Assembly (NCBI GenBank): GCA_027483995.1
Contig: JAIXTK010000116.1
Coordinates: 1 to 54,181, forward strand
Reading direction: 5' to 3'
DNA from: Acetobacteraceae bacterium
GTDB lineage: Bacteria; Pseudomonadota; Alphaproteobacteria; Acetobacterales; Acetobacteraceae
DNA: 54,181 nucleotides
This document shows positions 5,782 through 43,912 of this stretch, piece by piece (the stretch's first letter is position 1; the number at the start of each line of letters is the position of its first letter). A program made the translations under genes and the position numbers. The notes below the pieces were generated by a model. That model saw only the letters and a program-made list of their open reading frames with translations, was not told the origin of the DNA and searched no databases.

Positions 5782-5915
5782 TAAGCAAGGCTCTTCTTTT
5801 TCTGAAGAAAAAGAAGCAAAAAGACTTCATTCGCTTGCACCCGCGCTGGGCACCTAGCGCGGGCGCAAGAGAATAAAAGTTTTTTGGTTCTTTTTTTCAA
5901 AAAAGAACATTCTTA
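5782..5915 (+). repeat. AT-rich nested-palindrome intergenic element, copy 1 (complete, MITE/REP-like)
   Basis: Layout: TTAAGCAAGG, then hairpin A CTTCTTTTTC-TGAA-GAAAAAGAAG (5793-5816), CAAAAAGACTT, GC-rich centre, AAGTTTTTTGG, hairpin B GTTCTTTTTT-TC-AAAAAAGAAC, ATTCTTA. It fills the gap between two co-directional minus-strand genes. Confidence 0.85.
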
Positions 5916-6716
5916 CGCTGCCTTGGCTTGCGCCTTCTGCGCATAAGCTAACAAAGCCCCGTCCTCGCACGGCTCGATCGGCGTGAAATCCCGGTGCGCG
6001 ATGTATTCCGCCCGGGTTGGCGTGCGGATGTAGTTGGAACACGCGTTCAGCGTCAGGTACACGATCTTGCGCGGATACGGCGTGATGTTGCCGGCCGAGC
6101 CGTGCACCAGGTTGCCGTGGAACATCAGCAGCCCGCCCGGCTTGCCCACGGGCGTCACGATCCCGCCCTCGGCGACCAGCTTCGTCACGGTCGCCTCGTC
6201 CAGCGTCCAGAGCGGGTAGGAGGTGGTGCTCTTGTCGTGCCCGGCGGCGAGCGTGCCGTGGGTGTGGCTGCGCGGCACCAGCATCAGCGGGCCGTTGATG
6301 TGCATCACCTCGTCCAGGAACACCGCGATATTCATGGCCCGTGGCTCCGGCATGCCGTCATCACGTGCCCAGGTGCCGTAATCCTGGTGCCACTGCCACA
6401 CGTCCCCGGTGAAGGCCGACTTCGCGTTGATCTTGAACTGGTGCATGTACAGCTTCTCGCCGAACACCTGCTCGATCGGGCTGATCATGCGCGGGTGGCG
6501 CCCCAGCAGCCCGAAGGCCTCGTTGTACTGGTGCGCGGCGAAGGCCGTGCGGGGCGCGCCCGATTTCTCGCGCCAGATCTCCGGCCGGTTCGCGGCGTAG
6601 ATCGCCTCTGCCTCGTCGCGCAGAACCGCCACCTCCTCCGGGGTGAACAGCTCCGGCAGGAACAGGTAGCCCTCGCGGTGGAATGCCTCGATCTGCTGGG
6701 CCGAAAGCTCCATCAC
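5913..6716 (-). CDS. PhyH-family Fe(II)/2-oxoglutarate dioxygenase, ectoine-hydroxylase-like
   Basis: ORF 5913..6716. WQWHQDYGTWARDDGMP resembles the EctD/PhyH His-x-Asp signature; distal His in FHGNLVHGS. Confidence 0.8.
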   Translation of the reverse strand: MMELSAQQIEAFHREGYLFLPELFTPEEVAVLRDEAEAIYAANRPEIWREKSGAPRTAFAAHQYNEAFGLLGRHPRMISPIEQVFGEKLYMHQFKINAKSAFTGDVWQWHQDYGTWARDDGMPEPRAMNIAVFLDEVMHINGPLMLVPRSHTHGTLAAGHDKSTTSYPLWTLDEATVTKLVAEGGIVTPVGKPGGLLMFHGNLVHGSAGNITPYPRKIVYLTLNACSNYIRTPTRAEYIAHRDFTPIEPCEDGALLAYAQKAQAKAA

Positions 6717-6795
6717 GCCCTCCCTTGGTGCGTTTCGTTTTGCCCCCTACCCTTGCGGTCCCCGCACGGCCGGGTCAAGCAGGAAGGAACATGCC

Positions 6796-7950
6796 ATGGC
6801 AGCGCGCACCCTCGGTGTCGGCATCCTCGGCTGCGGCAACATCTCCGGCATCTACCTTCGCAACATGAAGCTGTTTGCCGGGCTGGAACTGCGCGCCTGC
6901 GCCAGCCGCACCCTGGCCAGCGCCCAGCGCGCCGCCGAGCCGCTCGGCCTGCCCGCCGTCACGGTGGCAGAGCTTCTGGCCCGGGAGGATATCGACATCG
7001 TCGTGAACCTCACGCCGCCCAACGACCACGCCGCGCTGACCCAGGCCGCGCTGGAAGCCGGCAAGCACGTCTATTCCGAGAAACCCCTCACGGTTTCCGT
7101 GGCGGATGCACAGCGCCTGATCAGCCTGGCCGGGAGCAACGGCCTCGCGCTGGGCTGCGCGCCGGATACGTTCCTGGGCGGCGGCCACCAGCTCTGCCGG
7201 CAGATCATCGACTCCGGCCGCATCGGCCGCGTTCTCGGCGGCACCGCGATGGTGCTGTCGCACGGCATGGAGCACTGGCACCCGGACCCGGAATTCTTCT
7301 TCAAGCCCGGCGGTGGTCCGGTGCTGGATCTCGGCCCCTACTACCTCACCGCGCTGGTGAACCTGCTTGGCCCCGTCGCCCGCGTTCAGGCCCATGGGCA
7401 GATCGGCCTGGCCGAGCGACACGTCACCGCTCCGGGGCCTCGCCATGGCCAGCGCATCAAGGTGGAAACCCTCACCCACGTGACCGCCCTGCTGGATTTC
7501 GCCGCCGGCCCGCAACTGACCCTCATGGCCAGCTGGGATATCTGGAAGAACGGCCACCCGCCGATCGAGCTGTATGGGACCGAAGGCTCGCTGCGCGTGC
7601 CGGATCCCAACTGGTTCGGTGGCACCCCCGAAGTGTCGGACCGCGACGGCCCCTGGCAGGCGCAGGAGAGCCACGCCATGCCCTTTGGCGCCAACAACTA
7701 TCGCGGCGCGCACTGGCCCGCGGAACGGCCGGACCAGGCCAACTACCGCGCGCTGGGCATCGCCGACCTCGCCGCCTCCGTTCGGGCCGGCACCCCGCAC
7801 CGCAGTTCCGCCCATCTCGCCTTGCACGTGCTGGAGGTGATGGACGCCATCCTGCAGGCCTGCGCCACCGCAGCCCCCATCACCCTCGCCCCTACCCTTG
7901 GCCGCCCTGCGCCCCTCGGTGCAGCGGAAGCCGCCGCCCTGCTTGCCTGA
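6796..7950 (+). CDS. Gfo/Idh/MocA family oxidoreductase
   Basis: ORF 6796..7950. N-terminal GILGCGNISG Rossmann motif and the EKP motif (VYSEKPL). Confidence 0.85.
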   Translation: MAARTLGVGILGCGNISGIYLRNMKLFAGLELRACASRTLASAQRAAEPLGLPAVTVAELLAREDIDIVVNLTPPNDHAALTQAALEAGKHVYSEKPLTVSVADAQRLISLAGSNGLALGCAPDTFLGGGHQLCRQIIDSGRIGRVLGGTAMVLSHGMEHWHPDPEFFFKPGGGPVLDLGPYYLTALVNLLGPVARVQAHGQIGLAERHVTAPGPRHGQRIKVETLTHVTALLDFAAGPQLTLMASWDIWKNGHPPIELYGTEGSLRVPDPNWFGGTPEVSDRDGPWQAQESHAMPFGANNYRGAHWPAERPDQANYRALGIADLAASVRAGTPHRSSAHLALHVLEVMDAILQACATAAPITLAPTLGRPAPLGAAEAAALLA

Positions 7951-7999
7951 CCGCGCCCGCCGCCGCACAGTCGCCCCGCGAACCAACCAGGAAACGCCC

Positions 8000-8596
8000 A
8001 TGAAACTCGCCTTCTCTGCCGCCAGCCCCTATGTCCGCAAGGTCATGGCGGTTGCCATCGCCCGCGGTGTCGACAGCCGCATCGAAAAGGCCAAGATCGG
8101 CACCACCGACCCCGCGCTGTTGGTGATGAACCCGCTCTCCAAGGTGCCCTCCCTGGTCACCGATGACGGCATGGCGCTGTATGACAGCCCGGTGATCTGC
8201 GAATACGTGGACAGCCTCGGCACCGGCCCCGGCACCTTCCCGGCCCCTGGCCCGGCCCGCTGGAACGCCCTGCGCCTGGCTGCCCTGGGCGACGGCATCA
8301 TGGATGCCAGCCAGCCGCGCCGCCGCGAACTCGCCCTGCCGCAGGATGAAGGCCGCACCACCTGGATCGAGCAGCAGAAGGGCAAGGTTGTCCGCTCGCT
8401 GGACGCGCTGGAAGCCGAAGCCGACACGCTGGGCCACCTCGCCACCTACGGTGAGATCACCGTTGCCTGCGCGCTGGGCTACCTGGATTTCCGCTTCCCG
8501 CATGAGCCCTGGCGCCCTGGCCACCCCAAGCTGACCGCCTGGTACGAGAAGGTCGTCGCCCTGCCCCCGATGGCGCAGACGATGCCGGTGGGCTGA
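8000..8596 (+). CDS. glutathione S-transferase family protein
   Basis: Inside ORF 7898..8596. Start moved to ATG 8000 (MKLAFSAASPYVRKV...). Thioredoxin-like N-domain with KVPSL. Confidence 0.8.
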   Translation: MKLAFSAASPYVRKVMAVAIARGVDSRIEKAKIGTTDPALLVMNPLSKVPSLVTDDGMALYDSPVICEYVDSLGTGPGTFPAPGPARWNALRLAALGDGIMDASQPRRRELALPQDEGRTTWIEQQKGKVVRSLDALEAEADTLGHLATYGEITVACALGYLDFRFPHEPWRPGHPKLTAWYEKVVALPPMAQTMPVG

Positions 8597-8690
8597 AGAA
8601 CGACGTCATCCGTTTGCGCCGGGGTTCGCTCCGGCGCAAACGAATGAAGGTTTTTTGGTTCTTTTTTTCAAAAAAGAACGCGCTTGCTTA
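8594..8690 (+). repeat. AT-rich nested-palindrome element, copy 2 (left part truncated)
   Basis: TGAAGAA-CGACGTCAT remnant, central hairpin GTTTGCGCCGGGG..CTCCGGCGCAAAC (8612-8641), GAATGAAGGTTTTTTGG, hairpin B, GCGCTTGCTTA. Lies between convergent genes. Confidence 0.8.
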
Positions 8691-9965
8691 CTTCGGCCGC
8701 GCCAAGGCCGCCGCCCATTTATGCTTCCAGTAGATCATCTGCGCCGGCGCCCGCCCCAGGGGCCCGCCCGCGAAGGGCAGCCCGAAGCGGCGGAACATCT
8801 GCCAGCGCGTATCGCCTTCGGTGATGGCCGACGCCAGCAGGGTGCCGGCCATGGTGGTGATCCCCATCCCCAGCCCGCCGAACCCCGTCGCCACCCAGCG
8901 GCCGGCCCCGATCGCGCCGATCATCGGCATGCGATGGCGCAGGTACGGCATCATCCCGCCCCAGGCGACCTCGACCTTGACCTTGTCGAGGTCCGGGTAG
9001 AACCACGCCATGTCCCGCCGCAGGGATTCCGTGAGCCAGGCATGGCTGGGCTTGAACGCCGCCACGCGGCCGCCCCAGAGCAGGCGCCCATCCTCCAGCG
9101 GCCGGTAGTAGTTGGTGGCGAAGCTGCGGTCGGCCAGCGAGATCTTGGTGCCGATCACTCGCGCCAGGTTCTCGCCGAGCGGCTCCGTCACCATGGTGTA
9201 GGTCGGCACCGGAATGGTGGCCATCGCCACCTTCCAGTCCAGCAGCCCGACATAGCCGCCGCCGGCCATCACCACCTGGTCGCACACCACCCGCCCGCGC
9301 GGCGTGCGCACCACCTGCCGCCCGCCCTGGCGGGACAGGCCCGTGGCCGGGCTTTCCTCATGCAGCCGTGCCCCCAGCCGGGCGGCGGCGGCGGCCGTGC
9401 CGCGGGTGAATTTCAGCGGGTTGAGGCTGAGGGCGGCCCTGTCCAGGATGCCATCGGAATAGCGCGTGGTGGCCAGGGTTTCGCGCACGGTCTGCCGTGA
9501 CCACACGATCAGGTCGCGGCCGAAGTCGCGGGCCATGAAATCGGCATAGCGGGCCATTTCGCCGTCATCCTCGGCCATGGCGAAGATCAGCCGGCCATCG
9601 ACCATCTCCCCCACGTCGATGCCGTACTGGGCGATGCGCCGGCGGATCAGCAGCAGGGCCTGAAGCGTCAGGCCATAGAGGTCGCGCGCATCCGGCAGCC
9701 CCACCTGGGCCACCAGGTCTTCCACCCGCGTGGGGTAGCCGGGCACCACGAAGCCGCCATTGCGGCCGGAGGCGCCCCAGCCGACGCGCTTGCGTTCCAG
9801 CAGCACCACGCTGCGCCCGCGTTCGGCGAGATCGAGTGCGGTGGCCAGGCCGGCCATGCCGCCGCCGATCACGCACACCTCGGCCTGCACCTCCCCATCC
9901 AGCGCCGGGTAGCGCTGCGCGGTGTCCACGGTGCGGGCGTAGTGGCTGTCCTCGTACGCGGTCAC
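8688..9965 (-). CDS. FAD-dependent oxidoreductase (gamma-glutamylputrescine oxidase / DadA-like family)
   Basis: ORF 8688..9965. Dinucleotide-binding motif [20 protein letters not shown]. Confidence 0.85.
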
Positions 9966-11005
9966 GACGTCACCACACGCAGCGCCGCCGGGTCTGCCGA
10001 AACACGCACTGCCGCACCCTGTTCGAAGCGGCGGCCATCGCGGTTGCCCACCCGCACCCGCACCACAAGCCCGTCCGCCAAGGCCACATGGTAGGTCGAA
10101 TCGGCCCCGTCATACACCAGCTGCGCCACCGTTCCGGCCAGGCCGGGGCCATCCGGCGCCATCATTGCCCGCTCCGGCCGCAGCACCAGCGTTGCCGCCT
10201 CCGGCCCATCCTCCGCGGCTTCCAGCTCGCCGCCCGCCACGGCGAATCGGCGCGCGCCCACCCGCCGTGCCGGCAGCAGGTTCGCCTCGCCGACGAAATC
10301 GGCCACGAACCGGCTCGCCGGCCGTTCATACACCTCGGCCGGGGTGCCCACCTGTTCCACCTTGCCCGCCCGCATCACCGCGATCCGGTCCGACAGGCTC
10401 AGCGCCTCGTGCTGGTCGTGCGTGACGAACACGAAGGTGATGCCGGTTGCCGCCTGCAGCCGCTTCAGTTCCAGCCGCATCTCGTTGCGCAGCTTCAGGT
10501 CCAGCGCCGACAGCGGCTCGTCCAGCAGCAGCAACCGGGGCGAGGCCGCCAGCGCCCGGGCCAGCGCCACGCGCTGCTGCTGCCCGCCGGACAGCTGGTT
10601 GGGCTTGCGCCCGCCCAGGCCGGCAAGCCGCACCAGCGCCAGCATCTCCTCCACCCGCGCGGCAATCTCCGCGCGCGACCGCTTCTGCATCTGCAGTGCG
10701 AAGGCCACGTTTTCCGCCACGGTCATGTGCGGGAACACGGCATAGCTCTGGAACACCGTGTTGACCGGCCGTCGGTGCGGCGGCAGCCCGTCCAGCGCCA
10801 TCCCGCCCAGCGTGATCGTGCCGGATTCCTGCGGCTCGAACCCCGCGATCGCCCGCAGCAGCGTTGTCTTGCCGCAGCCGGAGGGGCCGAGCAGCGTGAA
10901 GAATGCGCCCGCGGCGATGTCGAGGGAGACGCCGTCCAGCGCCCGCACGGCGCCGCCGAAAGTCTTGCGCAGATCGCGGCAGGCCAGCGCTCCCGCCGCC
11001 GCCAC
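9962..11005 (-). CDS. ABC transporter ATP-binding protein, PotA/PotG-like
   Basis: ORF 9962..11005. Walker [10 protein letters not shown], signature [10 protein letters not shown], Walker [13 protein letters not shown]. 4-nt overlap with the downstream oxidoreductase. Confidence 0.9.
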
Positions 11006-11007
11006 CG

Positions 11008-11313
11008 TCAGTGCGTCCAGTTCTCCGCCCGGCCGGCGCGGAAATTGTCGCTATAGGCCTTGGGCTTGATCACCTGCGCCTTCGGCAGTTCCACCACATG
11101 CGCAATGCCCTCGCGCTGCGCATAGGCCACCGCGTCCTCGCGGCTCTGGAACACCAGCTTCACCTGGGCCTGGGTGTCGGCGCTGCCGATCCAGCCCATC
11201 AGTGGGTCCGCCCGGCGTGCCTCGGCCGGCTCGAACTCCAGCACCCAGTCATCGGTCTTCGCCTTGCCGGACTGCATGGCATTCTTGGGGATCTGGTAGA
11301 TGCGCGCCCGCAT
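11008..11313 (-). CDS. ETC complex I subunit conserved-region protein (NDUFS4-like)
   Basis: ORF 11008..11319 (GTG). ATG 11313 is preferred because GAGGAG lies 5 nt upstream. Sequence [29 protein letters not shown]... is typical of the alphaproteobacterial NDUFS4 homologue. Confidence 0.8.
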
Positions 11314-11339
11314 GGCCACTCCTCGTCACAAACTCGATC

Positions 11340-11416
11340 TGGTCGGGGCGGCCGGACTCGAACCGGCGGCCTCGTGTACCCAAAACACGCGCGCTACCAG
11401 GCTGCGCCACGCCCCG
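11340..11416 (-). tRNA. tRNA-Pro (anticodon UGG)
   Basis: The reverse complement folds as a cloverleaf. Acceptor CGGGGCG/CGCCCCG, D arm GCGC-AGCCTGGTA-GCGC, anticodon arm CGTGT-TTTGGGT-ACACG, T arm GCCGG-TTCGAGT-CCGGC. Encoded ACCA 3' end; 77 nt. Confidence 0.93.
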
Positions 11417-11466
11417 TTCCCAGAACGGGCCGGAAGCTAGGCGCGAGACCCGCCCAGCGCAAGCAT

Positions 11467-11946
11467 TCAGCCGCCGGGCACCATGAAGATGGTGTGCGAA
11501 ACGCGGTCCCCTACCCGGATATCCAGCCGCTCGCAGGTTCCCGCAGCCACCTCCAGGGTCGCGCGCACCGGCACCATGCTGTCCACGATGGCCAGGCTCT
11601 GCGGCACCGTCCGCTCGGCGATGGTCTTGATGCGGCCGTCCTGCGCGATGAACACCATGTCCAGGCTCACGATGGTGTTGCGCATCCACATCTGGGAACG
11701 GCGTTCCTTGCCCCAGTCGAACAGCATCCCGCCATCCGCCGGCACACGCTGGCGGAACATCAGCCCGATCGATTGCTGCGCCGGCTCCAGCGCCATCTCC
11801 ACCATGAAGTAGTACGTCTTGCCGCGCCCGGTCACGATGCTCAGCCGTTCCTTGCGCAACTCGGGCTGCGGCCCGTCCTGTGCGGCCGCCACCTGCGGCA
11901 CCATCAGGGCCCCCAGGCCCAGCAACAGCCCTCGACGTACCATCAT
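11467..11946 (-). CDS. DUF192-domain protein with signal peptide
   Basis: C-terminal 159 codons of ORF 11467..12468, starting at ATGATG 11946 ([23 protein letters not shown]...). The upstream part of the ORF is Ala/Gly/Arg-rich shadow sequence that overlaps the deacetylase gene. Confidence 0.75.
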
Positions 11947-13954: not shown

Positions 13955-14072
13955 GAAGCGGTCTCCCTTGGCGGAACGGGGGCGGCGCCCCAGCTATATG
14001 GGCCGGGCGTCGGTTGCACGCCCTCCCCCCTATAAGTAACTTCCGCCCCGCGCAACGGAGAACGGCAGCAAC

Positions 14073-14699: not shown

Positions 14700-15598
14700 T
14701 GACCCTCCCGGCCACCGTCGCCGACACCGTCGCCCTGCTCGAAGCCGGCGGCTACGTCGCCGACACCGCACTCGCCACCACCGTGCACCTCGCCATGACC
14801 ATGGAACGCCCGCTGTTCCTGGAAGGCGAGCCCGGCACCGGCAAGACCGAGATCGCCAAGGTGCTCGCCGGCGGCCTCAACCGCCGCCTGGTCCGCCTGC
14901 AATGCTACGACGGCCTGGACCTCGCCGCGGCAGCCTATGAGTGGGACCACGCCCGCCAGCTCATGGCCATCCGCATCGCCGAAGCCACCGGCACGGCCGA
15001 CCGCCAGTCCCTCGCCAGCGACATCTACGCCCGCGAATACCTGCAATCGCGCCCGCTGCTCTCGGCCATCGACCCGGACCAGCCCCCCGCCGTGCTGCTG
15101 ATCGACGAGCTGGACCGCGCCGACGAACCCTTCGAGGCCTTCCTGCTGGAGCTGCTGGCCGACTTCCAGATCACCGTTCCGGAATACGGCACCATCCACG
15201 CCAAGACGAAGCCCGTGGTGGTCCTCACCTCCAACCGCACCCGCGAAGTGCACGACGCCATCCGCCGCCGCTGCCTCTACCACTGGGTGGACTACCCCGA
15301 CGCCAAACGCGAACGCGCCATCCTCGCCCGCAAGGCCCCGCACGTGCAGCCCAGGCTGGCGGCGGAAATCGTTGCCTTCGTGCAGAAAATCCGCGGCCAG
15401 GACCTGTTCAAGCAACCCGGCGTCGCCGAAAGCATCGACTGGGCCGGCGCACTCACCTACCTCAACCAAACCGAACTCACCCCCGGCGCGGTCGATGAAA
15501 CCCTGGGCGTGCTGCTGAAATACCAGGACGATATCGCCAAGATCAAAGGCGCGGAGGCGGCGCGGTTGGTGACGGAAGCCAAGGCGGCGGCGGACTAA
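14699..15598 (+). CDS. coxD: MoxR-family AAA+ ATPase (CoxD-like)
   Basis: ORF 14699..15598. Walker A GEPGTGKTE, Walker B LLIDELDRA. TGATG overlap with coxG. Confidence 0.9.
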   Translation: MTLPATVADTVALLEAGGYVADTALATTVHLAMTMERPLFLEGEPGTGKTEIAKVLAGGLNRRLVRLQCYDGLDLAAAAYEWDHARQLMAIRIAEATGTADRQSLASDIYAREYLQSRPLLSAIDPDQPPAVLLIDELDRADEPFEAFLLELLADFQITVPEYGTIHAKTKPVVVLTSNRTREVHDAIRRRCLYHWVDYPDAKRERAILARKAPHVQPRLAAEIVAFVQKIRGQDLFKQPGVAESIDWAGALTYLNQTELTPGAVDETLGVLLKYQDDIAKIKGAEAARLVTEAKAAAD

Positions 15599-15753
15599 GG
15601 AAGGACTTCTTTTTGTGAACAAAAAGAAGCAAAAAAACTTCATGACCTGCGCTGGGGATAACCTCCCTCGCGCCCGTGGAGTCACGCCGCCGCCATCAGC
15701 AAACGAACAAAGTTTTTTTGCTTCTTTTTGTTCACAAAAAGAAGGCCTTGCTG
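15596..15753. repeat. AT-rich nested-palindrome element, copy 3 (both ends A-type, perfect 35-bp terminal inverted repeats)
   Basis: 15606-15640, CTTCTTTTTGTGAACAAAAAGAAGCAAAAAAACTT, is the exact reverse complement of 15710-15744. Each TIR contains a 10-bp hairpin. It fills the coxD-coxE gap. Confidence 0.9.
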
Positions 15754-19662: not shown

Positions 19663-20119
19663 CTGGCGCCCCATGGCACCCGAAGACCTCGACTCCGTCG
19701 AGCGCCTCGGCAACACCATCCACCAGGCCCATCCCGAACGCCCGGAAGTCTTCGCCGAACGCCTGCGCCTCTGCCCCGAAGGCTGCCACGCGCTTGGAAA
19801 CCTCGACGGCTACATCATCAGCCACCCCTGGACGCTGGGCAGCCCGCCACCGCTCGATACCCTCCTCGGCGCCCTGCCCGCGCAGCCAGACACCTGGTAC
19901 ATCCACGACCTGGCACTGCACGAACGCGCCCGCGGGACCGGCGCCGCACCGGCCATCGTGGCTCAGTTAGCCGCCGCCCATGCCCTGCCCCTATCCCTGA
20001 TCGCCGTCGGCCGCTCGCCCGGCTTCTGGGCGCGGCAAGGCTTTGTTCCGGCCACGCTGCCGCAGGGCAAGCTCGCCTCCTATGGGGACGGCGCGACCTA
20101 CATGGTCAGAAGAAAGTAA
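19652..20119 (+). CDS. GNAT-family N-acetyltransferase (putative)
   Basis: ORF 19652..20119. Acetyl-CoA motif-A-like HERARGTGAAPAIV. 11-nt overlap with the upstream gene. Confidence 0.65.
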   Translation: MSPSWRPMAPEDLDSVERLGNTIHQAHPERPEVFAERLRLCPEGCHALGNLDGYIISHPWTLGSPPPLDTLLGALPAQPDTWYIHDLALHERARGTGAAPAIVAQLAAAHALPLSLIAVGRSPGFWARQGFVPATLPQGKLASYGDGATYMVRRK

Positions 20120-20241
20120 GAGTCTTCTTTTTCTGAAGAAAAAGAAGCAAAAAGACTTTACTCGTTCGCCGGCCATTGCGGCCGAGGCGCAGGTCCCAAA
20201 AGTTTTTTGGTTCTTTTTTTCAAAAAAGAACCGCTTGCTTC
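20117..20241 (+). repeat. AT-rich nested-palindrome element, copy 4 (complete)
   Basis: GTAAGAGT, hairpin A, CAAAAAGACTTTA, GC-rich centre (CGCCGGCCATTGCGGCCGAGGCG), AAAAGTTTTTTGG, hairpin B, CGCTTGCTTC. Lies between convergent genes. Confidence 0.85.
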
Positions 20242-27266: not shown

Positions 27267-27896
27267 ATGCTGAAACTCTGGGGCCGCACCACGTCCAGCA
27301 ACGTCATGAAGGTCCTCTGGCTGCTGGAGGAACTGCACCTCCCGTACCAGCGCATCGACGCCGGCGGCGCCTTCGGCCAGACCGACACGCCGGACTACCG
27401 CAGCATGAACCCCCTCGGCCTGGTCCCCAGCCTGGAAGACGGCGAGATCCGCCTGTTCGAGAGCAACGCCATCCTGCGCTTCCTCTGCAACGCCCACGCG
27501 CCGGCCACCCCGCTCTACCCCACCGCGCCGGCCGCCCGCGCCCAGGTCGAATCCTGGATGGATTTCCAGCAAACCGCCCAGTCCCGCCCCGCCAGCACCA
27601 TCTTCCTCGGCCTCATCCGCACGCCGCCGGAACAGCGCGACACCGCCGCCATCGCCGCCGCGGTCACGGAACTCGCCCGCATCTGGTCCATCTGCGCCAA
27701 CCAGGCCCAGGGCAAGGGCGGCTTCCTCTGCGGCCCCAGCCTCACCCTGGCCGACATCGCCTTCGCCCCGCATCTGCACCGCTGGTTCCACATGCCCATC
27801 GAGAACCGGCCCGAAGTACCGGGCCTGCGCGCCTGGTACGACCGGATGGCGCCCCAGGCGGGCTTCCAGAAGCACGTCGCGGTCAAGGTGGAGTAA
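27267..27896 (+). CDS. glutathione S-transferase
   Basis: Inside ORF 26226..27896. ATG 27267 is preceded by AGGAGA. MLKLWGRTTSSNVMKVLWLLEEL..., LVPSLEDGE, ESNAILRFL. Confidence 0.85.
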   Translation: MLKLWGRTTSSNVMKVLWLLEELHLPYQRIDAGGAFGQTDTPDYRSMNPLGLVPSLEDGEIRLFESNAILRFLCNAHAPATPLYPTAPAARAQVESWMDFQQTAQSRPASTIFLGLIRTPPEQRDTAAIAAAVTELARIWSICANQAQGKGGFLCGPSLTLADIAFAPHLHRWFHMPIENRPEVPGLRAWYDRMAPQAGFQKHVAVKVE

Positions 27897-27972
27897 GGAA
27901 GCGTCTTCTTTTTCTGAAGAAAAAGAAGCAAAAAGACTTCACTTGTTTGCGCCGGGCCCTCCCGGCGCAAAC
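27894..27972 (+). repeat. AT-rich nested-palindrome element, copy 5 (right part missing)
   Basis: GTAAGGAAGCGT, hairpin A, CAAAAAGACTTCA, perfect 12-bp central hairpin GTTTGCGCCGGG-CCCT-CCCGGCGCAAAC (27945-27972). No hairpin B. Confidence 0.8.
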
Positions 27973-31314: not shown

Positions 31315-31431
31315 CGCACCCTCCCCAACCATTCCCCACAGCCTGACGACCGCGCCTCCCACCCGTCAAGCCAATGGACAACCCGCCCCCCATTGCCGAA
31401 ACTCCGCCCCAACAAACCGAGGAAACGACAA

Positions 31432-33015: not shown

Positions 33016-33026
33016 TTGCGACAGAA

Positions 33027-33052
33027 GGGGTGCGGCGATACCGTCGCACCCC
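33027..33052 (+). terminator. hairpin between the SBP gene and the FecCD permease gene
   Basis: GGGGTGCG-10 nt-CGCACCCC. No U-tract. It ends 4 nt before ATG 33057. Confidence 0.35.
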
Positions 33053-33056
33053 TGCG

Positions 33057-37222: not shown

Positions 37223-37302
37223 CGGGCGAGGGCAGCGCGAAACGCGACAGGCGTCAACCTCCGTGGCAAAGTGTCATGACCGAGACGGAGGAGACGAACG
37301 CA

Positions 37303-38052
37303 ATGAGCAAGATCGCACTGGTAACGGGCGGCGGCAGCGGCGTGGGCCGCGCGGCGGCGCTGGCGCTGCTGGGCGCCGGCTGGACCGTGGTGCTGGCCGG
37401 GCGGCGCGCCGATGCGCTGCAGGAAACCGCGAGCCTGGCGGGCACCCAAGGGACCCGCACCCTGTGCGTGCCGACCGACGTGACCCAGCCGGAGGCGGTG
37501 GACGCGCTGTTCGCCGAGATCAAGGCCAAGTATGGCCGGCTGGACCTGGTGTTCAACAATGCCGGCGGCAACGTGCCGAGCACCAATTTCGGCGACTTCA
37601 CCTGGGAGCAATGGACCCAGGTGGTGGCGGTGAACCTCAACGGCTGTTTCCTGATCGCCAACCGCGCCTTCCAGATGATGCGCGACCAGACCCCCCAGGG
37701 CGGGCGGATCATCAACAACGGCTCGATCTCCGCGCACACGCCGCGGCCGGGCTCGGCGGCCTATACCTCCACCAAGCACGCGATCACCGGCCTCACGAAG
37801 GCGATCGCGCTCGATGGCCGCAACTACGACATCGCCTGCGGCCAGATCGACATCGGCAATGCCGCGACCCCGATGACGGCGCGAATGGCCAAGGGCGTGC
37901 CGCAGCCGGACGGGACCACCCGCGTGGAGCCGACCATGGATTCCGGCAATGTGGGCAAGACCATCCTCTACATGGCCGAGCTGGACGCCGACGCGAACGC
38001 GCTATTCGTGGTGGTGAAGGCAAGCAAGATGCCGTTCGAGGGGCGCGGCTAG
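37303..38052 (+). CDS. SDR-family oxidoreductase
   Basis: ORF 37276..38052. ATG 37303 has GGAGGAG 8 nt upstream. [19 protein letters not shown]. Confidence 0.85.
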
Positions 38053-38185
38053 GGAAGCAAGGAAGCAAAGGGGTCACAGAGAACACAGAGGTCCACAGAG
38101 GGGCATGGAGAAGAAAATCACGATCTGCTTCTCTGTGCCCCTCCGTGGCCCTCTGTGTTCTCTGTGACCACTTCGCTTTAGCCTA
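38050..38185. repeat. long imperfect palindromic element spanning stop-to-stop between convergent genes
   Basis: Arms 38063-38113 and 38128-38178 are complementary at 45 of 51 positions. The loop is AAAATCACGATCTG. The arms are built of tandem units ending in CACAGAG. Flanked by TAG (38050-38052) and CTA (38183-38185). Confidence 0.85.
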
Positions 38186-40477
38186 AACGCACAACAGAAC
38201 GGACACCGATTGCCCCGCCGGCACATGCACCGGCGCCCCGCACACCTCGATATCGATCGCGCTCCCCTGCTCGATCTCCAGCGTCGCCTGCGCCGGGTCC
38301 AGCCGCACGCGCAGCCGGCTGCCGTGCCAGTGGAGTGCGAAGGCGAGGCTGGTCCAGGCCGCGGGCAGGCGGGGGTTGAGGCGCAGCGTGCCGGTTTGCC
38401 AGGAGGCGCCGGCGAAGCCGAGCACCGCGGCCTGCCAGACGCCGCCGAGAGCCGCGATATGCACGCCACCGGCGCTGCTGCCGGGCTTGCCCTCCATGTC
38501 CGGCAGGTAGGCCTGGCGGAAGTGGCGCAGCGCCTGGGCGGTATGGCCGAGACGGGCGGCGACCACGGCGTGCAGCGCGGCGCTGAGCGAGCTTTCGTGG
38601 GTGTTGAGGGGTTCGTAGTAGTCGTAGCTGGCGCGCAGCGTTTCCGGTGGGACGGCATCGGGCAGCAGGGCAAGCAGGGCGACCACGTCCGCCTGCTTGG
38701 CGATCTGGGTGTGCTGGGCGCGGCCACGCACCAGGGCGGCGGCCTCCGCCCCCGTGGTGCCGTGCAGATCGACCCGGGGCAGCTGGAAGAAGCCGCGGAA
38801 CTGCTCGATCAGGCCGGTCGCGGGGTCGTGCGGGATCACCAGCGCATCGGCGGCGCGCCGCCAGGCGGCGGGTTCGGCCTCGGCCAAGGCGAGGCGGGTG
38901 GCGAGGGCGGCATGGGCGGCGGGGCGGCGCGCCCGGAGCAGGGCCAGGGCCTCGGCGGCGCTGCGCAGGCAGTGTGCGGCCATGGCGTTGGTGAAGGCGT
39001 TGTCGTCCACCAGCTCATGGTACTCGTCCGGCCCGATCACGCCGGAGATGTGCAGGCTGCCATCGGGCGAAGGCTCGGCGCGGCTGGCCCAGAAGCGGGC
39101 GCAGTCTGCCATGATCTCGGCGCCGGCCTCTGCGAGGAAATCCGTGTCGTCGGTGGCCAGGATGTGGTTCCAGACGGCATAGGCGATATCGGCGGTGATG
39201 TGCTGTTCCTGGGTGCCGGTTTGCACGGGAACGGGAATGCCGTCGGCGCCCAGGATAGTGGGGGGCGTGGCCTCCGCGCCGGTATCGGCGGATTCCCAGG
39301 CGAACATCGCACCCCGGTAGCCCAACGACGCGGCGCGGGCGCGGGCGGCCGGCAGGGTGCGGTGGCGATAAAGCAGCAGGGCGCGCGCCGCTTCGGGCCA
39401 GGTGAGGGTGTAGAAGGGCAGCAGGTAGATCTCGGTGTCCCAGAAGACATGGCCGAGATAGCTGTCCCCGGTCATGGCGCGGGCACCGATGGAAACCGCG
39501 GGGTCGGCGGGGTTGGCCGCGCTGACCAGGTGGTAGGCGGCGAAGCGCAGCGCCTGCTGGGCGCCGGGATCGCCGGCGATGTCCACGGCGCACTCCCGCC
39601 AGCGATCGTCCCAGGCGGCTTCGTGGGCGGCGAGCAGCGCGCGCCAGGGCGGGGCGGCGGCGCGGGCGGCGATGGCGCGCGGGGCCGGATCGTCGGCGCG
39701 CGAATCGGCGCGGGCGGCGGCGACGACGCGGTGGAATTCCATCATCTCGCCGGGCTTGGTGGTCCAGCGCCAGGTGTGGCCGAACGGGGTGTCGGTTTCG
39801 GGCACAAGCTCCGTATCGCCGCGCCGCAGGGATGCCCGCGTGGCCAGCGCCACGCTGTGCGGGGCATGTTCGGCGCGCCAGACCGAGAGGCCGGCCTCCA
39901 GCCTGGCGAGCCCAAGCCCCGTGCCGGCCGGGTCTGGCAGGGCATCGAGCGCGAGGGCGAGCCCGCCCCGGCTGGCCACGATCTGGACCACCTGCAGCGC
40001 CAGCGCCGGGGCGTGGCGGGCGGCGAGGCGCAATGTGCGCAGGTGCAGCACCGTGCCGTCCGCGCATTCGTGGCGCCATTCGGAGAGCAGCAGGCCGCGC
40101 CGCAGGTCGAGCGTACGGGACATGTCGGCCCCCTGGCGCAGGCGCACCAGCGTGCCATCCACCGACAGGCGCAGGCGCAGCCAATCGGGCGCGGGCATGG
40201 CCACGGGGATCGGCGGCTCGATATCCGGCACGTCGAACAGGCCGGCCACGTAGCAGCGCGGCCAGGAGATGGGGCGGAAGGTGGTGATCCAGCTGGTCCA
40301 GAACGCGGCACGGCCGAGATCACGCGCGCCGCGCATTGCCAGCAGGCCATTGGCGGTGGTGAAGCGGGATTCGATATCGGCCTCGCGGGCCGGTTCCAGG
40401 CCATCGGCGTGCATGTGCCAGCCGGGCGCCGGCTGCGCCCAGGCGGGGTCTTCGATCGGGAAGCCGGCATCGTTCAT
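38183..40477 (-). CDS. glycoside hydrolase family 65 (kojibiose/trehalose/maltose phosphorylase-like)
   Basis: ORF 38183..40477. GH65 catalytic-domain signature GHVFWDTEIYLLPFY. About 760 aa, typical for the family. Confidence 0.85.
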   Translation of the reverse strand: MNDAGFPIEDPAWAQPAPGWHMHADGLEPAREADIESRFTTANGLLAMRGARDLGRAAFWTSWITTFRPISWPRCYVAGLFDVPDIEPPIPVAMPAPDWLRLRLSVDGTLVRLRQGADMSRTLDLRRGLLLSEWRHECADGTVLHLRTLRLAARHAPALALQVVQIVASRGGLALALDALPDPAGTGLGLARLEAGLSVWRAEHAPHSVALATRASLRRGDTELVPETDTPFGHTWRWTTKPGEMMEFHRVVAAARADSRADDPAPRAIAARAAAPPWRALLAAHEAAWDDRWRECAVDIAGDPGAQQALRFAAYHLVSAANPADPAVSIGARAMTGDSYLGHVFWDTEIYLLPFYTLTWPEAARALLLYRHRTLPAARARAASLGYRGAMFAWESADTGAEATPPTILGADGIPVPVQTGTQEQHITADIAYAVWNHILATDDTDFLAEAGAEIMADCARFWASRAEPSPDGSLHISGVIGPDEYHELVDDNAFTNAMAAHCLRSAAEALALLRARRPAAHAALATRLALAEAEPAAWRRAADALVIPHDPATGLIEQFRGFFQLPRVDLHGTTGAEAAALVRGRAQHTQIAKQADVVALLALLPDAVPPETLRASYDYYEPLNTHESSLSAALHAVVAARLGHTAQALRHFRQAYLPDMEGKPGSSAGGVHIAALGGVWQAAVLGFAGASWQTGTLRLNPRLPAAWTSLAFALHWHGSRLRVRLDPAQATLEIEQGSAIDIEVCGAPVHVPAGQSVSVLLCV

Positions 40478-41142
40478 GCAGCGGGACCTTGGGGCAGAAG
40501 GACGAGGGCGGCAGGATCATCCAGCGTGGCCACCACACAGGTGGGGCCGGCAGCCAGCAGCGGGGCGGCATCACCCTTGCGGGCCACGGCCAGGCTGGCC
40601 ATGCCGGCAGCGCGTGCGGCGGCAATGCCGGCGGGTGCGTCTTCCAGAACCAGACAGTGCGCGGGGGCCATGCCGAGTTCCGCGGCGGCGCGCAGAAAGA
40701 GATCCGGCGCGGGCTTGCCGTGCGCCACGCCGCGGCCGGAGAGATCGGCGTGGAACAGGCGGGCCAGGTTGGCACTGGCCAGAATGGCCGAGGCGTTCTT
40801 CGAGGAGGACGCGGCAGCGATGCGCAGCCCGGCGGCGCGGGCGGCCTCCAGGAAGCGCACGGCATCGGCGAACACGGTGAAGGCGCCGGCCGCGACCAAG
40901 GCGAGGAAGCGCGCCTGCTTGGCGGCGGCGTAGGCCGCCACCTCGGCCTCGGCCATGATGCCGTGGGCGGCCAGAGCGGCGCGGGCGCCATCGAACCGCG
41001 GCTTGCCGGCGACCAACGCGGCATAGGCAGCTGGGGTGAGCACGGTGCCGGGGTAGCGTTGGGCCAGCGCCTCGCGCCAGGCGCGCTCGTGCGGGGTGTC
41101 GATCACCACGCCGTCGATGTCGACGATCACGGCGGTGATCAA
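40474..41142 (-). CDS. pgmB: beta-phosphoglucomutase-like HAD-IA hydrolase
   Basis: ORF 40474..41142 (TTG start). DIDGVVIDT nucleophile motif and SSSKNA. 4-nt overlap with the GH65 gene. Confidence 0.8.
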   Translation of the reverse strand: MITAVIVDIDGVVIDTPHERAWREALAQRYPGTVLTPAAYAALVAGKPRFDGARAALAAHGIMAEAEVAAYAAAKQARFLALVAAGAFTVFADAVRFLEAARAAGLRIAAASSSKNASAILASANLARLFHADLSGRGVAHGKPAPDLFLRAAAELGMAPAHCLVLEDAPAGIAAARAAGMASLAVARKGDAAPLLAAGPTCVVATLDDPAALVLLPQGPAA

Positions 41143-41269
41143 GGAAGGAAGGCCTTCTTTTTCTGAAGAAAAAGAAGCAAAAAGACTTTTATTTGTTTGC
41201 GCCCGGCCTCCCCGACCAGCAAGCGAATGAAAGTTTTTTGGTTCTTTTTTTCAAAAAAGAACATGCTTA
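41141..41269 (+). repeat. AT-rich nested-palindrome element, copy 6 (complete)
   Basis: AAGGAAGGAAGGC, hairpin A (41154-41177), CAAAAAGACTTTT, centre, GAATGAAAGTTTTTTGG, hairpin B (41241-41262), ATGCTTA. It fills the arfB-pgmB gap. Confidence 0.85.
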
Positions 41270-41683
41270 CTCACTGGGCGGCCGCCGCGCCGCCTTGATG
41301 CCGGAGCGATTTTTTTTCGCGTCCAGGCGCCGTTCCTTGGAGCCGAGCGTGGGCCGTGTGGCGCGGCGCTTGATGGGCACCACCGTGGCGCGGCGGATCA
41401 GCTCGAACAGGATTTCCCGCGCCGCGCTTCGGTTGCGGTCCTGGCTGCGGAATTCCTGGGCGGTGATCACGATCACGCCATCCTGCGTGGCGCGGTGGCC
41501 GGCGAGCTTCAGCAGGCGGATGGCGACATCGTCGGGCAGGTTGGGGGACCGGCGCGCATCGAAGCGCAGCTGCACCGCGGTGCTCACCTTGTTGACGTTC
41601 TGGCCGCCGGGGCCAGAGGCGCGGATGAAGCTTTCCTCCAGCTCGCGCTCATCAAGCTGGATGCGGTGGGTAACGGGGATCAT
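41267..41683 (-). CDS. arfB: alternative ribosome-rescue factor ArfB (peptidyl-tRNA hydrolase, class I RF-like)
   Basis: ORF 41267..41683. GGQ motif ASGPGGQNVNKV and a basic C-terminal tail. Confidence 0.9.
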   Translation of the reverse strand: MIPVTHRIQLDERELEESFIRASGPGGQNVNKVSTAVQLRFDARRSPNLPDDVAIRLLKLAGHRATQDGVIVITAQEFRSQDRNRSAAREILFELIRRATVVPIKRRATRPTLGSKERRLDAKKNRSGIKAARRPPSE

Positions 41684-41686
41684 GGG

Positions 41687-41723
41687 TCTCTCCTGCGGCC
41701 GTTCTACACGACCGCAGGAGAGA
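41687..41723 (-). promoter_or_regulatory. perfect 12-bp hairpin whose 3' arm contains the arfB SD
   Basis: On the mRNA strand: TCTCTCCTGCGG-13 nt-CCGCAGGAGAGA-CCC-ATG. It lies between the SDR stop (41730) and the arfB ATG (41683). Confidence 0.5.
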
Positions 41724-41729
41724 AGGCAG

Positions 41730-42518
41730 CTACTCGCCGCCGCCGGTGGCCGGCTGGCCGGTGGTAACGCCGCCGTCGATCACGAAGGTCTGGCCGGTGG
41801 TGAAGCTGCCGGAGGGGGAGGCGAGGAACACGGCGGCACCCGCGATCTCATCCGGCTCGCCGATGCGCTGCAGCGGGGTGGTCTTGCTGCGGGTCTTTTC
41901 CTTCACGGGGTCTTCCCACAGCGCCTTGGCGAAGTCGGTGCGGATCAGGCCCGGGGCGATGGCGTTGGCGCGGATATTGTCCGGCCCGTATTCCACGCAG
42001 AGGTTGCGCACCAGCGCCATGTCCGCCGCCTTGGAGATGGCATAGACGCCCAGATGCGTGCTGCCGCGCAGGCCGCCGATGGAGGAGACCACGATCATGG
42101 AGCCGCCGCCGCGCTGCTTCATGCTGGGGGCCGCCATGTGGCACAGCCAGTGGTTGGAGCGGACGTTGTAGTTCATCACCCGGTCCCACGCCTCGTCCGG
42201 CAGGTTCTGCGACAGGCCGTAGAACGGGTTCACCGCGGCGTTGCAGACCATGATGTCGATGCCGCCATAGGTGGCGATGGCGAAATCCACCAGCGCCTGC
42301 AGCTCTTCCTTGCGGCCGATGTTGCACACCTTGGTGGCGGCGGTACCGCCCTTGGCGATGATCTCGTTGGTGACGAGATCGCAGGCATCCTGCTTGCGGG
42401 AGGAGACGACGACCTTGGCGCCGTGCTCGGCCATGCGCAGGGCGATGGCCTTGCCGATGCCCTTGCTGGAGCCGGTGATGACGGCAACCTTGCCGGTGAG
42501 ATCAAAAAGCGACGACAT
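41730..42518 (-). CDS. SDR-family oxidoreductase
   Basis: ORF 41730..42560. ATG 42518 (MSSLFDLTGKVAVITGSSKGIG) is preceded by GGAGGA. NAAV, YAISKAA. Confidence 0.85.
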   Translation of the reverse strand: MSSLFDLTGKVAVITGSSKGIGKAIALRMAEHGAKVVVSSRKQDACDLVTNEIIAKGGTAATKVCNIGRKEELQALVDFAIATYGGIDIMVCNAAVNPFYGLSQNLPDEAWDRVMNYNVRSNHWLCHMAAPSMKQRGGGSMIVVSSIGGLRGSTHLGVYAISKAADMALVRNLCVEYGPDNIRANAIAPGLIRTDFAKALWEDPVKEKTRSKTTPLQRIGEPDEIAGAAVFLASPSGSFTTGQTFVIDGGVTTGQPATGGGE

Positions 42519-42587
42519 GGGCGTTCCTCCGCGAAGTTCGTTGAGGGGAGGAAAGCGCAAAGCAGAGCGGTGCGCCAGCCCCGGCGC

Positions 42588-43796
42588 CTAGAGCAGCGCC
42601 AGCGCCACCAGGATGGTCAGCACCGTCAGCGGCGCGCCGGCCATGAGGTAGGTCCAGAAGCCGATCTCCACGCCGCGCGCCCGTGCCCGCTGCACCACGA
42701 TGAGGTTGGCGACCGATCCCACCAGGGTGAGGTTGCCGGCCAGGGTGGCGGTGGCGGCCACCACCGTCCAGGCGCGGGCGGGGTCTGGCAGCGTGGCGAC
42801 GAAGGGCCTCAGCACCAGCACCGCCGGCACGTTGCTGACGATGTTGGAGAGCGCGGCGGTAGCGAGACCCAGCGTGGGCATGTGGTGCGGGCCGAGGCCG
42901 GCGATGGCGGCGATGCGCTCCGGCGTCAGCACCGCGCGTTCCAGCCCCGCCACCACCACGAACAGCCCGGCGAACATCACCAGCAGCGGCCAGTCGATCT
43001 CGGCATAGATGCGCGCGGGCTTCACGCGGCGCGTGGCCAGCAGCACGGCGCCGGCCACCAGCGCGGCCTCGGCCGGCGGCACCCCGGCGAAGAAGGCGGC
43101 GGCCATCAGCAGCGCCACCACGGAGGTCTTGCGCAGCAGCTTGCGGTCGGTGCGCCAGGGCGGCGGCTCGGCGGAGAGGCGCGCGGCTGTCAGGAACTCG
43201 CCGCGCCAGAGCAGGGCCAGCAACGCGATGGTGAGAAACAACCCGATCGCGGCAACAGGGGCCATGCTGGCGGCGAATTGCGCGTAGGGAATGCCGGAGA
43301 GGCTGCCCACGATCATGTTCTGCGGGTTGCCGGTGAGCGTGGCGGCCCCGCCAATATTGGCGGCGAGCGGGATCGCCAGAACATAGGGCACGGGGTTGCG
43401 GCGCAGATGCAGCACGATATCGAGCACCAGCGGCGTCAGCACGATGCAGATCGTGTCGTTCACCAGGAAGGCGCTGAGCACGCCCGACAGCACCACGATG
43501 GCGGCGAGCAGCGGCAGCGGGTGGCGCGCCCGTGCCACGGCCCAGGCGGTGGCGAGCGCGAAGAACCCGGCGAGGCGCAGATGCGCCACCACGATCATCA
43601 TGCCCAGCAGCAGCGCGATCGTGTTCCAGTCGATGGCGCGGTAGGCCGCCTCCAGCGGAATGGCGCCGGTGGCGACCATCAGCGCGCCGCCCAGCAGCGC
43701 GGCGCCGATGCGGTCGATGCGCAGGCCCGGCAGTCGCCCGAAGGCGACCACGGCATAGGTGGCGGCGAAGATCGTGATCGTCAGCACAGGAAGCAT
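42588..43796 (-). CDS. anion permease of the ArsB/NhaD-CitMHS (SLC13-like) superfamily
   Basis: ORF 42588..43859. ATG 43796 is chosen because the upstream codons are repeat-derived (KVFWFFFSKKN). Polytopic membrane protein. Confidence 0.8.
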   Translation of the reverse strand: MLPVLTITIFAATYAVVAFGRLPGLRIDRIGAALLGGALMVATGAIPLEAAYRAIDWNTIALLLGMMIVVAHLRLAGFFALATAWAVARARHPLPLLAAIVVLSGVLSAFLVNDTICIVLTPLVLDIVLHLRRNPVPYVLAIPLAANIGGAATLTGNPQNMIVGSLSGIPYAQFAASMAPVAAIGLFLTIALLALLWRGEFLTAARLSAEPPPWRTDRKLLRKTSVVALLMAAAFFAGVPPAEAALVAGAVLLATRRVKPARIYAEIDWPLLVMFAGLFVVVAGLERAVLTPERIAAIAGLGPHHMPTLGLATAALSNIVSNVPAVLVLRPFVATLPDPARAWTVVAATATLAGNLTLVGSVANLIVVQRARARGVEIGFWTYLMAGAPLTVLTILVALALL

Positions 43797-43912
43797 GTTC
43801 TTTTTTGAAAAAAAGAACCAAAAAACTTTTCTCCCCTGGTGTCCAGGGGCCCCGCCCAAAACGGCTAAAGTCTTTTTGCTTCTTTTTCTTCAGAAAAAGA
43901 AGGCCTTGCTTA
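43790..43912 (-). repeat. AT-rich nested-palindrome element, copy 7 (complete, inverted orientation)
   Basis: The reverse complement reads GTAAGCAAGGC, hairpin A, CAAAAAGACTTTA, GC-rich centre (GGGGCCCCTGGACACCAGGGG), AAAAGTTTTTTGG, hairpin B, ATGCTTCC. It fills the copA-permease gap. Confidence 0.85.

Follow-up and report, generated by a model that had tools for sequence, protein, structure and literature searches.

A taxon-restricted palindromic repeat family of the Acetobacteraceae with conserved AT-rich hairpins, copied beside gene 3' ends and conserved in place

Background

Several families of palindromic repeats have been described from the intergenic regions of bacteria, and an AT-rich element present in seven copies on a 54,181-nt stretch of DNA from an Acetobacteraceae bacterium (assembly GCA_027483995.1, contig JAIXTK010000116.1, positions 1 to 54,181; hereafter the window) is new within this REP/BIME/ERIC/RIME kind of repeat. 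The element consists of two inverted halves, each with a small AT-rich hairpin, on either side of a hairpin of variable sequence. It forms a dispersed and non-autonomous family that is restricted to the Acetobacteraceae; selection preserves its two local hairpins, whole units have been copied to new sites beside gene 3' ends without target-site duplication, and in a copy that has become fixed the arms are under purifying selection while the centre drifts neutrally.

The REP and BIME sequences of enterobacteria and pseudomonads resemble the element in being intergenic palindromic mosaics of many copies, found after stop codons and inside operons and without target-site duplications, and roles in mRNA 3'-end protection and termination have been proposed for them. 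REPs, however, are GC-rich palindromes of 20-40 nt that carry GTAG or CGTC tags and are linked to RAYT genes, whereas the conserved palindromes of the present element are AT-rich 24-mers without tags, its GC hairpin is variable, and no RAYT occurs among the 46 products of window open reading frames (ORFs) that were scanned against Pfam. What the two have in common is the mosaic combination of intergenic modules, and what is missing is the tagged GC-rich palindrome. ERIC or IRU elements (~127 bp) are similar in length, are likewise imperfect palindromes that are intergenic, transcribed and common to the genera of a whole family, and fold as an RNA hairpin that affects mRNA fate. They are conserved along their full length, in contrast to an element that is conserved only in its arms and has a hypervariable centre. 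ERIC is reported to duplicate TA on insertion, whereas a duplication was not found here, and there is no sequence or Rfam similarity between ERIC and the element.

The Correia elements of Neisseria (CREE/NEMIS) resemble miniature inverted-repeat transposable elements (MITEs); they are ~100-155 bp long, lie at gene ends and inside operons, and have inverted-repeat ends that form RNA stems, all of which recalls the present element, as does their terminator activity, which in the element is predicted from sequence. Their 26-bp terminal inverted repeats, TA duplication and conserved interior contrast with the terminal local hairpins, variable interior and lack of a detectable duplication seen here. 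Among the general marks of a MITE, terminal inverted repeats and presence/absence polymorphism are present, and a fixed-length target-site duplication is absent. The BOX elements of Streptococcus pneumoniae share conserved end modules, a variable middle, an intergenic position and a non-autonomous nature with no known transposase, but their boxB middle is a repeated conserved module, their host has a low GC content, and there is no sequence relation. Palindrome-associated transposable elements (PATEs) of the IS200/IS605 type have subterminal hairpins at both ends, which in the present case are backed by covariation, and no target duplication; their ends are not inverted, however, and they insert 3' of a conserved 4-5-nt target, whereas the ends of the element are inverted repeats that include the A/T-tracts and the outer arms.

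Bidirectional intrinsic (Rho-independent) terminators have the same layout of A-tract, GC hairpin and T-tract and the same placement between convergent genes and at operon ends. The element shows a hairpin followed by a U-tract on both strands and a location at gene 3' ends, though many of its units lie inside operons; ordinary terminators, for their part, are not repeated and lack 35-nt flanking modules that are common to several genera and have their own covarying hairpins. Integron attC sites were rejected as a candidate, as AAAGAAC and GTTCTTT depart by inspection from the R''/R' core consensus (RYYYAAC / GTTRRRY), the neighbouring genes have housekeeping functions and run in either direction, and the scan of window ORF products detected no integrase domain.

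RIME1 and RIME2 are alphaproteobacterial intergenic mosaics of large palindromes, ~100-110 bp in length. They belong to the Rhizobiales and have a different, GC-rich sequence, and on this description they are set apart from the element. The two Rhizobium-specific intergenic mosaic elements are named in PMC2573895. The preliminary description of this DNA, made from the sequence without database searches, had not recognised the repeat as a named family, and this assessment is borne out. At the Rfam gathering threshold the only match in the window is one tRNA and none falls on the element, an E-value scan of its first unit gave generic long-hairpin hits only, far under their thresholds, and searches of the literature with exact sequence strings and keywords returned no description of it.

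Anatomy of the unit

By means of a Hamming scan, 116 distinct full units with a modal length of 110-120 nt were taken from 147 sources (1.17 Mb in total; L-numbers such as L148 are the labels of fetched comparison loci, L006 and L007 being IMG/VR contigs). The left side of a unit comprises a degenerate purine arm (AAGSAAGRnT), hairpin A (CTTCTTTTTC-TGAA-GAAAAAGAAG) and an A-tract (CAAAAAGACTT); there follow a centre with a median length of 50 nt and, on the right side, a T-tract (AAGTTTTTTG), hairpin B (GTTCTTTTTT-TC-AAAAAAGAAC) and a pyrimidine arm. The half-element can be described as the degenerate purine arm, the 10-bp AT hairpin with its conserved TGAA loop, and the A-tract, and the full unit as two such halves in inverted order around the variable hairpin, the left half being an imperfect inverted repeat of the right. 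Across units the A and B modules are nearly invariant and the centre is hypervariable. Centres have 56% GC, a mean minimum free energy of -16.5 kcal/mol (mean z -2.2) and, in 59% of cases, the form of a single end-to-end hairpin, and base complementarity of the centre is higher within elements (6.95) than between elements (5.98 +/- 0.11).

The outermost 10-12 nt have only a degenerate purine/pyrimidine consensus and are the least conserved part of the element. Their profile is identical whether the neighbouring gene runs in or out, and the possibility that the outer arms form an element-specific stem was rejected because no covariation was found (7.24 versus 6.99 +/- 0.13). Other arrangements of the modules include A-centre-A units, solo halves, back-to-back B-A and alternative right arms, and many apparent solo halves have diverged partner arms. 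At L012:4712-4782 and L017:4124-4196 the order is inside-out, with 4-6 nt between a B module and the A module behind it and with both modules turned toward an outer sequence of their own; this order shows that half-elements can combine independently. In Novacetimonas maltaceti (L135:4321-4470) the right-arm hairpin is a fully compensated variant, GAAGCTTTTTTCAAAAAGCTTC, and the centre is AT-rich.

Seven copies had been described in the window, all of them intergenic, and the window sequence confirms them at the following positions:

5782..5915, + strand: full unit 1, with purine arm 5782-5792, hairpin A and A-tract 5793-5827, centre hairpin 5828-5876 (dG -33 kcal/mol), T-tract and hairpin B 5877-5908, and pyrimidine arm 5909-5915; co-directional minus-strand neighbours, a PhyH gene (stop 5913) and a DRL oxidoreductase gene (start ~5768)
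8594..8690, + strand: solo half (copy 2), with centre hairpin 8606-8647, T-tract and hairpin B 8648-8679, and a pyrimidine arm that ends in the TTA stop of the minus-strand DAO gene; 17-nt arms, 94% complementary; convergent neighbours, GST (+) and DAO (-)
15596..15753, no strand: full unit 3, its two ends both of the A' variant (15606-15640 and 15710-15744, reverse complements of each other without a mismatch), its centre 69 nt long; within the cox accessory operon, where it separates the coxD stop (TAA 15596) from the coxE start (ATG 15754)
20117..20241, + strand: full unit 4, with A 20124-20158, centre 20159-20199 and B 20200-20231; convergent neighbours
27894..27972, + strand: solo half (copy 5), with a purine arm that contains the TAA stop, hairpin A and A-tract 27905-27939, and GC hairpin 27945-27972; convergent neighbours
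41141..41269, + strand: full unit 6, with A 41154-41188, centre 41189-41230 and B 41231-41262; co-directional minus-strand neighbours, an ArfB-like gene (stop 41267) and a HAD hydrolase gene (start ~41142)
43790..43912, - strand: full unit 7, inverted, with B 43797-43828, centre 43829-43867 and A 43868-43902; co-directional minus-strand neighbours, a P-type ATPase gene (stop 43910) and a CitMHS transporter gene (start ~43808)

The outer ends of these copies overlap flanking stop codons, with TAA at 5913, 8688, 15596, 20117, 27894, 41267 and 43910. Matches to the A module CTTCTTTTTCTGAAGAAAAAGAAGCAAAAAGACTT with at most three mismatches number seven in the window, five of them exact, and those to the 32-nt B module AAGTTTTTTGGTTCTTTTTTTCAAAAAAGAAC number five, with none expected in shuffles for either module. 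A half-element nhmmer profile built from other genomes recovered exactly 12 halves, namely five full units and the solo halves 8636-8690 and 27893-27949, and since it found nothing more in the window, the inventory of seven copies is complete. Two smaller remarks of the preliminary description also hold, in that the A module contains 10 G+C in 35 nt by count and GAAGAAAAAGAAG is by inspection a mirror repeat. The modular layout that had been attributed to all copies needs two corrections, in that the copy at 15596-15753 has A' at both ends and the centres of copies 3 and 4 are weak hairpins. As had been noted, no transposase-type gene was seen near the copies; a Pfam scan of 46 ORF products of the window turned up neither a transposase nor an integrase or HUH enzyme, and the products serve metabolism and transport.

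Separated by 19 kb, the two solo halves share almost identical centre stems (GTTTGCGCCGG/CCGGCGCAAAC; 8606-8647 and 27945-27972) and are ordered centre-B ... A-centre, an arrangement that resembles attL/attR. An integrated 19-kb island between them was considered and rejected, as synteny in relatives continues across the left junction.

Folding and covariation

Two alternative folds had been proposed for the unit: two small AU hairpins plus the centre, or one long AU-rich stem capped by the centre. When 49 units were folded with RNAalifold, only the two local AT hairpins were recovered, with 99.1% of cells paired and compensatory changes at six pairs. The covariation score of these hairpins is 0.086 versus 0.023 in shuffles, none of 500 shuffles scored as high, and slid controls were far lower. 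The long A:B stem is thermodynamically possible, but its covariation score (0.031 versus 0.033) amounts to none, three of its pairs (14-136, 23-127 and 37-115) cannot form in 44-47 of the 49 units, and the differences between A and B systematically disrupt it. Because the long stem is without covariation, the fold that evolution maintains is the first, and it is the two local hairpins that selection preserves. The exceptions to pairing are strand-symmetric (4 UG versus 4 CA) and do not distinguish RNA from DNA.

Distribution across taxa and phages

The distribution of the family was searched with a 24-nt degenerate A pattern that required an exact A core, and lineages with a diverged consensus would therefore be missed. 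The pattern matched more than 117 genomic stretches, which among the matches listed are almost all labelled Acetobacteraceae or Rhodospirillales, and also 29 IMG/VR contigs. The named carriers are Gluconacetobacter, Novacetimonas, Asaia, Neokomagataea, Endosaccharibacter, Acidocella, Roseomonas/Pseudoroseomonas, Rhodovarius and Rhodovastum, some with only 51-58% GC, and identical modules of 24-35 nt are common to several Acetobacteraceae genera. No half-element was found in 80 control loci of other taxa (533 kb; relatives of the CitMHS gene at 57-70% identity from a metagenome scan, too distant for an analysis of empty sites), versus 12 in the 54-kb window. A BLAST search of plasmids returned two Pseudoroseomonas matches only, a number probably limited by the low-complexity filter. 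The earlier view of the element as a dispersed, modular and non-autonomous family of the MITE/REP/BIME kind, which had been formed from the copies of the window, extends with these matches to genomes and phages.

Three element-carrying contigs (L072, L136 and L145; 72-74% GC) come from metagenome-assembled genomes (MAGs) labelled Janthinobacterium lividum; they are probably mis-binned Acetobacteraceae contigs. Two of the IMG/VR contigs are genuine phage structural modules (L006:5525-11197 and L007:4567-8871) in which PHROGs identify small and large terminase, portal, major head and tail sheath proteins, and each carries three units between co-directional late genes (terminase, portal, major head, tail sheath).

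Mobility and insertion sites

Orthologous sites that lack the element were found for three units of the window. Two close relatives, L148 (CoxE 95% identical) and L143, are without unit 4 and have in its place 10-12 nt, the stop codon among them; the gene at this site ends in ...R-R-K-stop in the window and in ...R-R-L-stop in these relatives. At the site of unit 1 the relative L147 has an unrelated GC-rich spacer, and the coxD-coxE junction of L235 (76% CoxE identity) measures 4 nt and lacks unit 3. Over a syntenic stretch of 14-21 kb, three relatives have one unit where the window has four. The phage contig L006 contains two copies, set in unrelated flanks, that agree at all 119 nt from CTTC to GAAC (100% identity), and this identity ends at module boundaries and not at the outer arms. 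Centres group into genome-specific subfamilies. These observations show that the unit is copied whole, from A to B.

Copying leaves no target-site duplication that could be recognised, as identical 2-, 3- and 4-mers are not enriched at symmetric fixed offsets in 116 units. The preliminary description had named an IS630-type element as an example of a source to look for; such an element, with its TA duplication, is not supported, as no duplication is seen at any fixed offset and the distance between stop codon and module varies. No autonomous version of the element was found either, since no A..B pair encloses 250-4000 bp in the 1.17 Mb; the sole candidate, L042, turned out to be an ordinary unit with a diverged arm.

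Among 104 units, 37 lie between convergent genes, 61 are in tandem contexts, 4 are divergent and 2 were not classed, and at least one gene 3' end adjoins 98 of the 102 classifiable units. The distance from the end of a stop codon to a module is in most cases 1-20 nt; it varies broadly and peaks at 7-8 nt. The share of TAA among stops within 20 nt of a module is 37% versus a background of 9.5%, from which it follows that the purine arm often supplies the stop codon. In tandem contexts the downstream gene often has a Shine-Dalgarno sequence of its own and a start 20-60 nt beyond the module, a spacing that leaves no room for a separate promoter. No sigma-70 promoter was seen in the modules by eye, and a scanner found none at four elements within the 5-25 kb region. 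Orientation of the element relative to transcription is unbiased (24 versus 27), and the idea that solo halves are oriented to terminate the incoming gene was rejected, as there is no clear asymmetry.

Conservation at the coxD-coxE junction

The site of unit 3 between coxD and coxE is filled in the window and in L143, L147, L148 and L150. Among these five genomes, identity is 93-100% over the 70 nt of arm sequence and 48-81% in the centre; in coxE the first and second codon positions are 90-96% identical and the third positions 68-80%. A rare variant of the right arm is common to four relatives, which points to vertical inheritance and purifying selection and not to homogenisation toward a genomic consensus. 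Because the arms at this inherited site are more conserved than nonsynonymous codon positions, the element is not merely selfish DNA. This conservation in situ is the point that the preliminary description had missed.

A proposed portable terminator with recognised hairpins

One of the central questions about the family concerns its function. The reading favoured here, with a probability of roughly one half, is that of a family-wide structured mosaic repeat whose units would act as portable bidirectional intrinsic terminators and 3'-end hairpins, and whose AT hairpins would be recognised by a putative factor. Resemblance to a bidirectional terminator had been remarked upon from the window copies and extends to the family. 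A unit was scored as an intrinsic terminator when its dG was -10 or lower, its stem lay no more than 2 nt from the U-tract and the 12 nt that followed contained 7 or more U; of 93 units, 66% pass on the forward strand and 57% on the reverse. The centre is closed by CUU/AAG, with a U-rich tract directly after it on either strand; a generic terminator scanner misses the units because its rule allows only a 0-2-nt spacer. The absence of an orientation bias is as expected for a symmetric device.

The window has ~69% GC, and although the elements make up 1.6% of its bases they contain 17 of its 18 A/T runs of at least 6 and 36 of its 42 runs of at least 5. The elements would thus supply almost all of the U-tracts available in a 69% GC genome. 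The sole A/T run of at least 6 outside the elements is a T8 (A8 on the coding strand) at 41310-41317, near the 3' end of the ArfB-like RF-1-domain gene (41267-41683, - strand), whose exact protein has no entry on record. The AT hairpins, in turn, may be structure-specific recognition modules for a putative trans-acting factor, which could be a mobilising enzyme or an RNA/DNA-binding host protein, and recognition by such a factor would explain a sequence conservation that goes beyond the needs of a U-tract.

A number of points weigh against this reading. Termination is predicted from sequence features, a literature search having turned up no transcriptome data for this sequence, and the estimate of conservation is drawn from a single orthologous site, compared among five genomes. 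Very tight tandem junctions hold many of the units (coxD-coxE, and the terminase-portal-capsid-sheath operons of phages), and a strong terminator at such a place would be costly. Weaker centre hairpins inside operons than between convergent genes were looked for and rejected, as hairpin strength shows no difference between convergent and tandem contexts (p = 0.25-0.67). About 40% of the centres are not clean single hairpins. A role as a U-tract, taken by itself, leaves the invariant C4:G21 pair, the fixed T5/A5 run lengths and the TGAA loop unexplained, and both the mobilisation mechanism and the trans-acting factor remain putative.

A bolder version, offered tentatively and with a low probability, is that the AT hairpins are the sites of a putative Acetobacteraceae-specific factor and that the element is a domesticated, self-spreading 'terminator cassette' kept by host-level selection. 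Such a cassette would equip gene ends with a hairpin, with a U-tract on either strand and in many cases with a new TAA stop, and would serve GC-rich genomes and their phages, filling the role of REPs by a different mechanism.

Industrial producers of acetic acid and cellulose belong to the Acetobacteraceae, and so do opportunistic pathogens, Roseomonas among them; knowledge of how transcripts end in this family is scant. If the units were the main source of canonical terminators in these bacteria, they would define operon boundaries and could be used as compact, bidirectional, host-native terminator parts. A mobile repeat with arms more constrained than protein and a free centre presents a clean case of a repeat becoming useful to its host, and the AT hairpins provide a concrete bait for the putative factor. 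The element is also a sharp taxonomic marker, as the flagging of the Janthinobacterium-labelled contigs illustrates.

Alternative explanations

The alternative that survives best, though it is considered rather improbable, is that of a REP/BIME-like or IS200/IS605-PATE-like element whose folded AT hairpins are moved by a single-strand-specific HUH (Y1) enzyme, so that conservation reflects recognition by this enzyme. Terminal hairpins are indeed the conserved and covarying feature of the unit, the missing target-site duplication is in keeping with this mechanism, and so is the mosaic architecture with solo halves, B-A junctions and alternative right arms. A survey from 2013 found classical CGTC REPs to be missing from the Acetobacteraceae (PMC3733652), and the niche may therefore be open. 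A mechanism of this type fits the hairpins and the missing duplication but not the tags, the base composition or the inverted symmetry: neither GTAG nor CGTC tags are present, the hairpins are AT-rich and 24 nt long in contrast to GC-rich REPs, and the ends, flanks included, are inverted repeats, which the two ends of IS200/IS605 are not. The 5' flank, moreover, is a degenerate purine stretch with T at position -1 in 55-69% of units, and not a sharp 4-5-nt target, and Pfam shows no Y1 enzyme among the 46 window ORF products. Recognition for mobility would also leave purifying selection on a fixed copy unexplained.

Somewhat less probable is a purely selfish MITE of DDE type, derived for example from IS630 or IS5/IS1031, that inserts at TA/TNA/YTAR and has no host function, stop codons being the few tolerated sites in a GC-rich genome. 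An element of ~120 nt that is noncoding, has inverted-repeat ends and is polymorphic in its insertions would suit this explanation, and in three junctions where empty and filled sites could be compared the TA of the stop codon marks the boundary, with TAG in the empty and TAAG in the filled state. The excess of TAA stops near modules (37% versus 9.5%) also speaks for it. The outer arm GGAAGG presumably resembles the ends of IS5-type elements. Nevertheless, no direct repeat of 2-4 nt occurs at any fixed offset in the 116 units, the stop-to-module distance varies broadly over 1-20 nt, and the termini are the least conserved part of the element, the identical copies of L006 stopping at module boundaries. 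There is also no A..B pair with a transposase-sized insert in the 1.17 Mb and no transposase among the 46 window ORF products, and arms that in situ are more conserved than nonsynonymous positions are not those of a decaying selfish copy. The missing duplication, the weakly conserved termini and the conservation in situ together leave the plain DDE MITE disfavoured.

The units could instead be DNA-level sites for a protein, acting as a nucleoid-associated, segregation or DNA-uptake signal whose uniformity is maintained by a conserved host protein or by uptake bias, with the terminator features incidental. This is unlikely, although it fits the conservation of the arms in situ and the exact 24-35-mers that are common to several genera. 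By inspection, each half has three ~10-nt GAAAAAGAAG-like repeats, with A-tracts phased at ~10-11 bp and no TpA steps, and both the lack of an orientation bias and the wobble-type exceptions without strand bias (4 UG versus 4 CA) speak for this explanation. Compensatory changes, however, keep base-pairing and not a fixed half-site sequence, the strict association with gene 3' ends (98 of 102 units) is not needed by a structuring or uptake site, and the unit is copied whole with a variable centre; neither the compensatory changes nor the 3'-end bias is thus accommodated. With regard to uptake, we know of no natural competence system in the Acetobacteraceae, a point of little weight.

That the copies are locus-specific regulatory sequences or look-alike native terminators and not a dispersed family, as the syntenic conservation of the coxD-coxE copy in five genomes might suggest, is refuted by hundreds of modules at unrelated loci in many genera and phages, by empty orthologous sites and by identical copies in unrelated flanks.

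Other repeats in the window and at orthologous sites

A different near-perfect palindrome of 116 nt lies at 38053-38180 of the window, between convergent SDR and GH65 genes, with arms at 38063-38119 and 38122-38178 that are 86% complementary. It starts directly after a TAG stop with GGAAGCAAGGAAGCAAAGG and ends in ..CACTTCGCTTTAG; its outer purine/pyrimidine arms are the same as those of the AT-rich element and its core is unrelated, a core 20-mer having no match in any of 235 fetched loci. The tRNA matched in Rfam is a tRNA-Pro gene (TGG), located at 11340-11416 on the minus strand.

Other repeats have also been found at sites where the window carries a unit. A GC-rich palindromic repeat (GGCGGGGGCTCCGCCCCTCGACCCCGCTGGGGCC...) fills the coxD-coxE junction in L233:1-190, where it is followed by the pyrimidine arm CTTGCCTTTCTTCC, and occurs again at L147:3275-3414, the site orthologous to unit 1; the same junctions, on this evidence, attract different repeat families. 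At L044:4090-4200 (MAG SJ470), the site orthologous to copy 5 of the window is occupied by three tandem REP-like GC hairpins, GGCGGTCAGTGGACCGCC.

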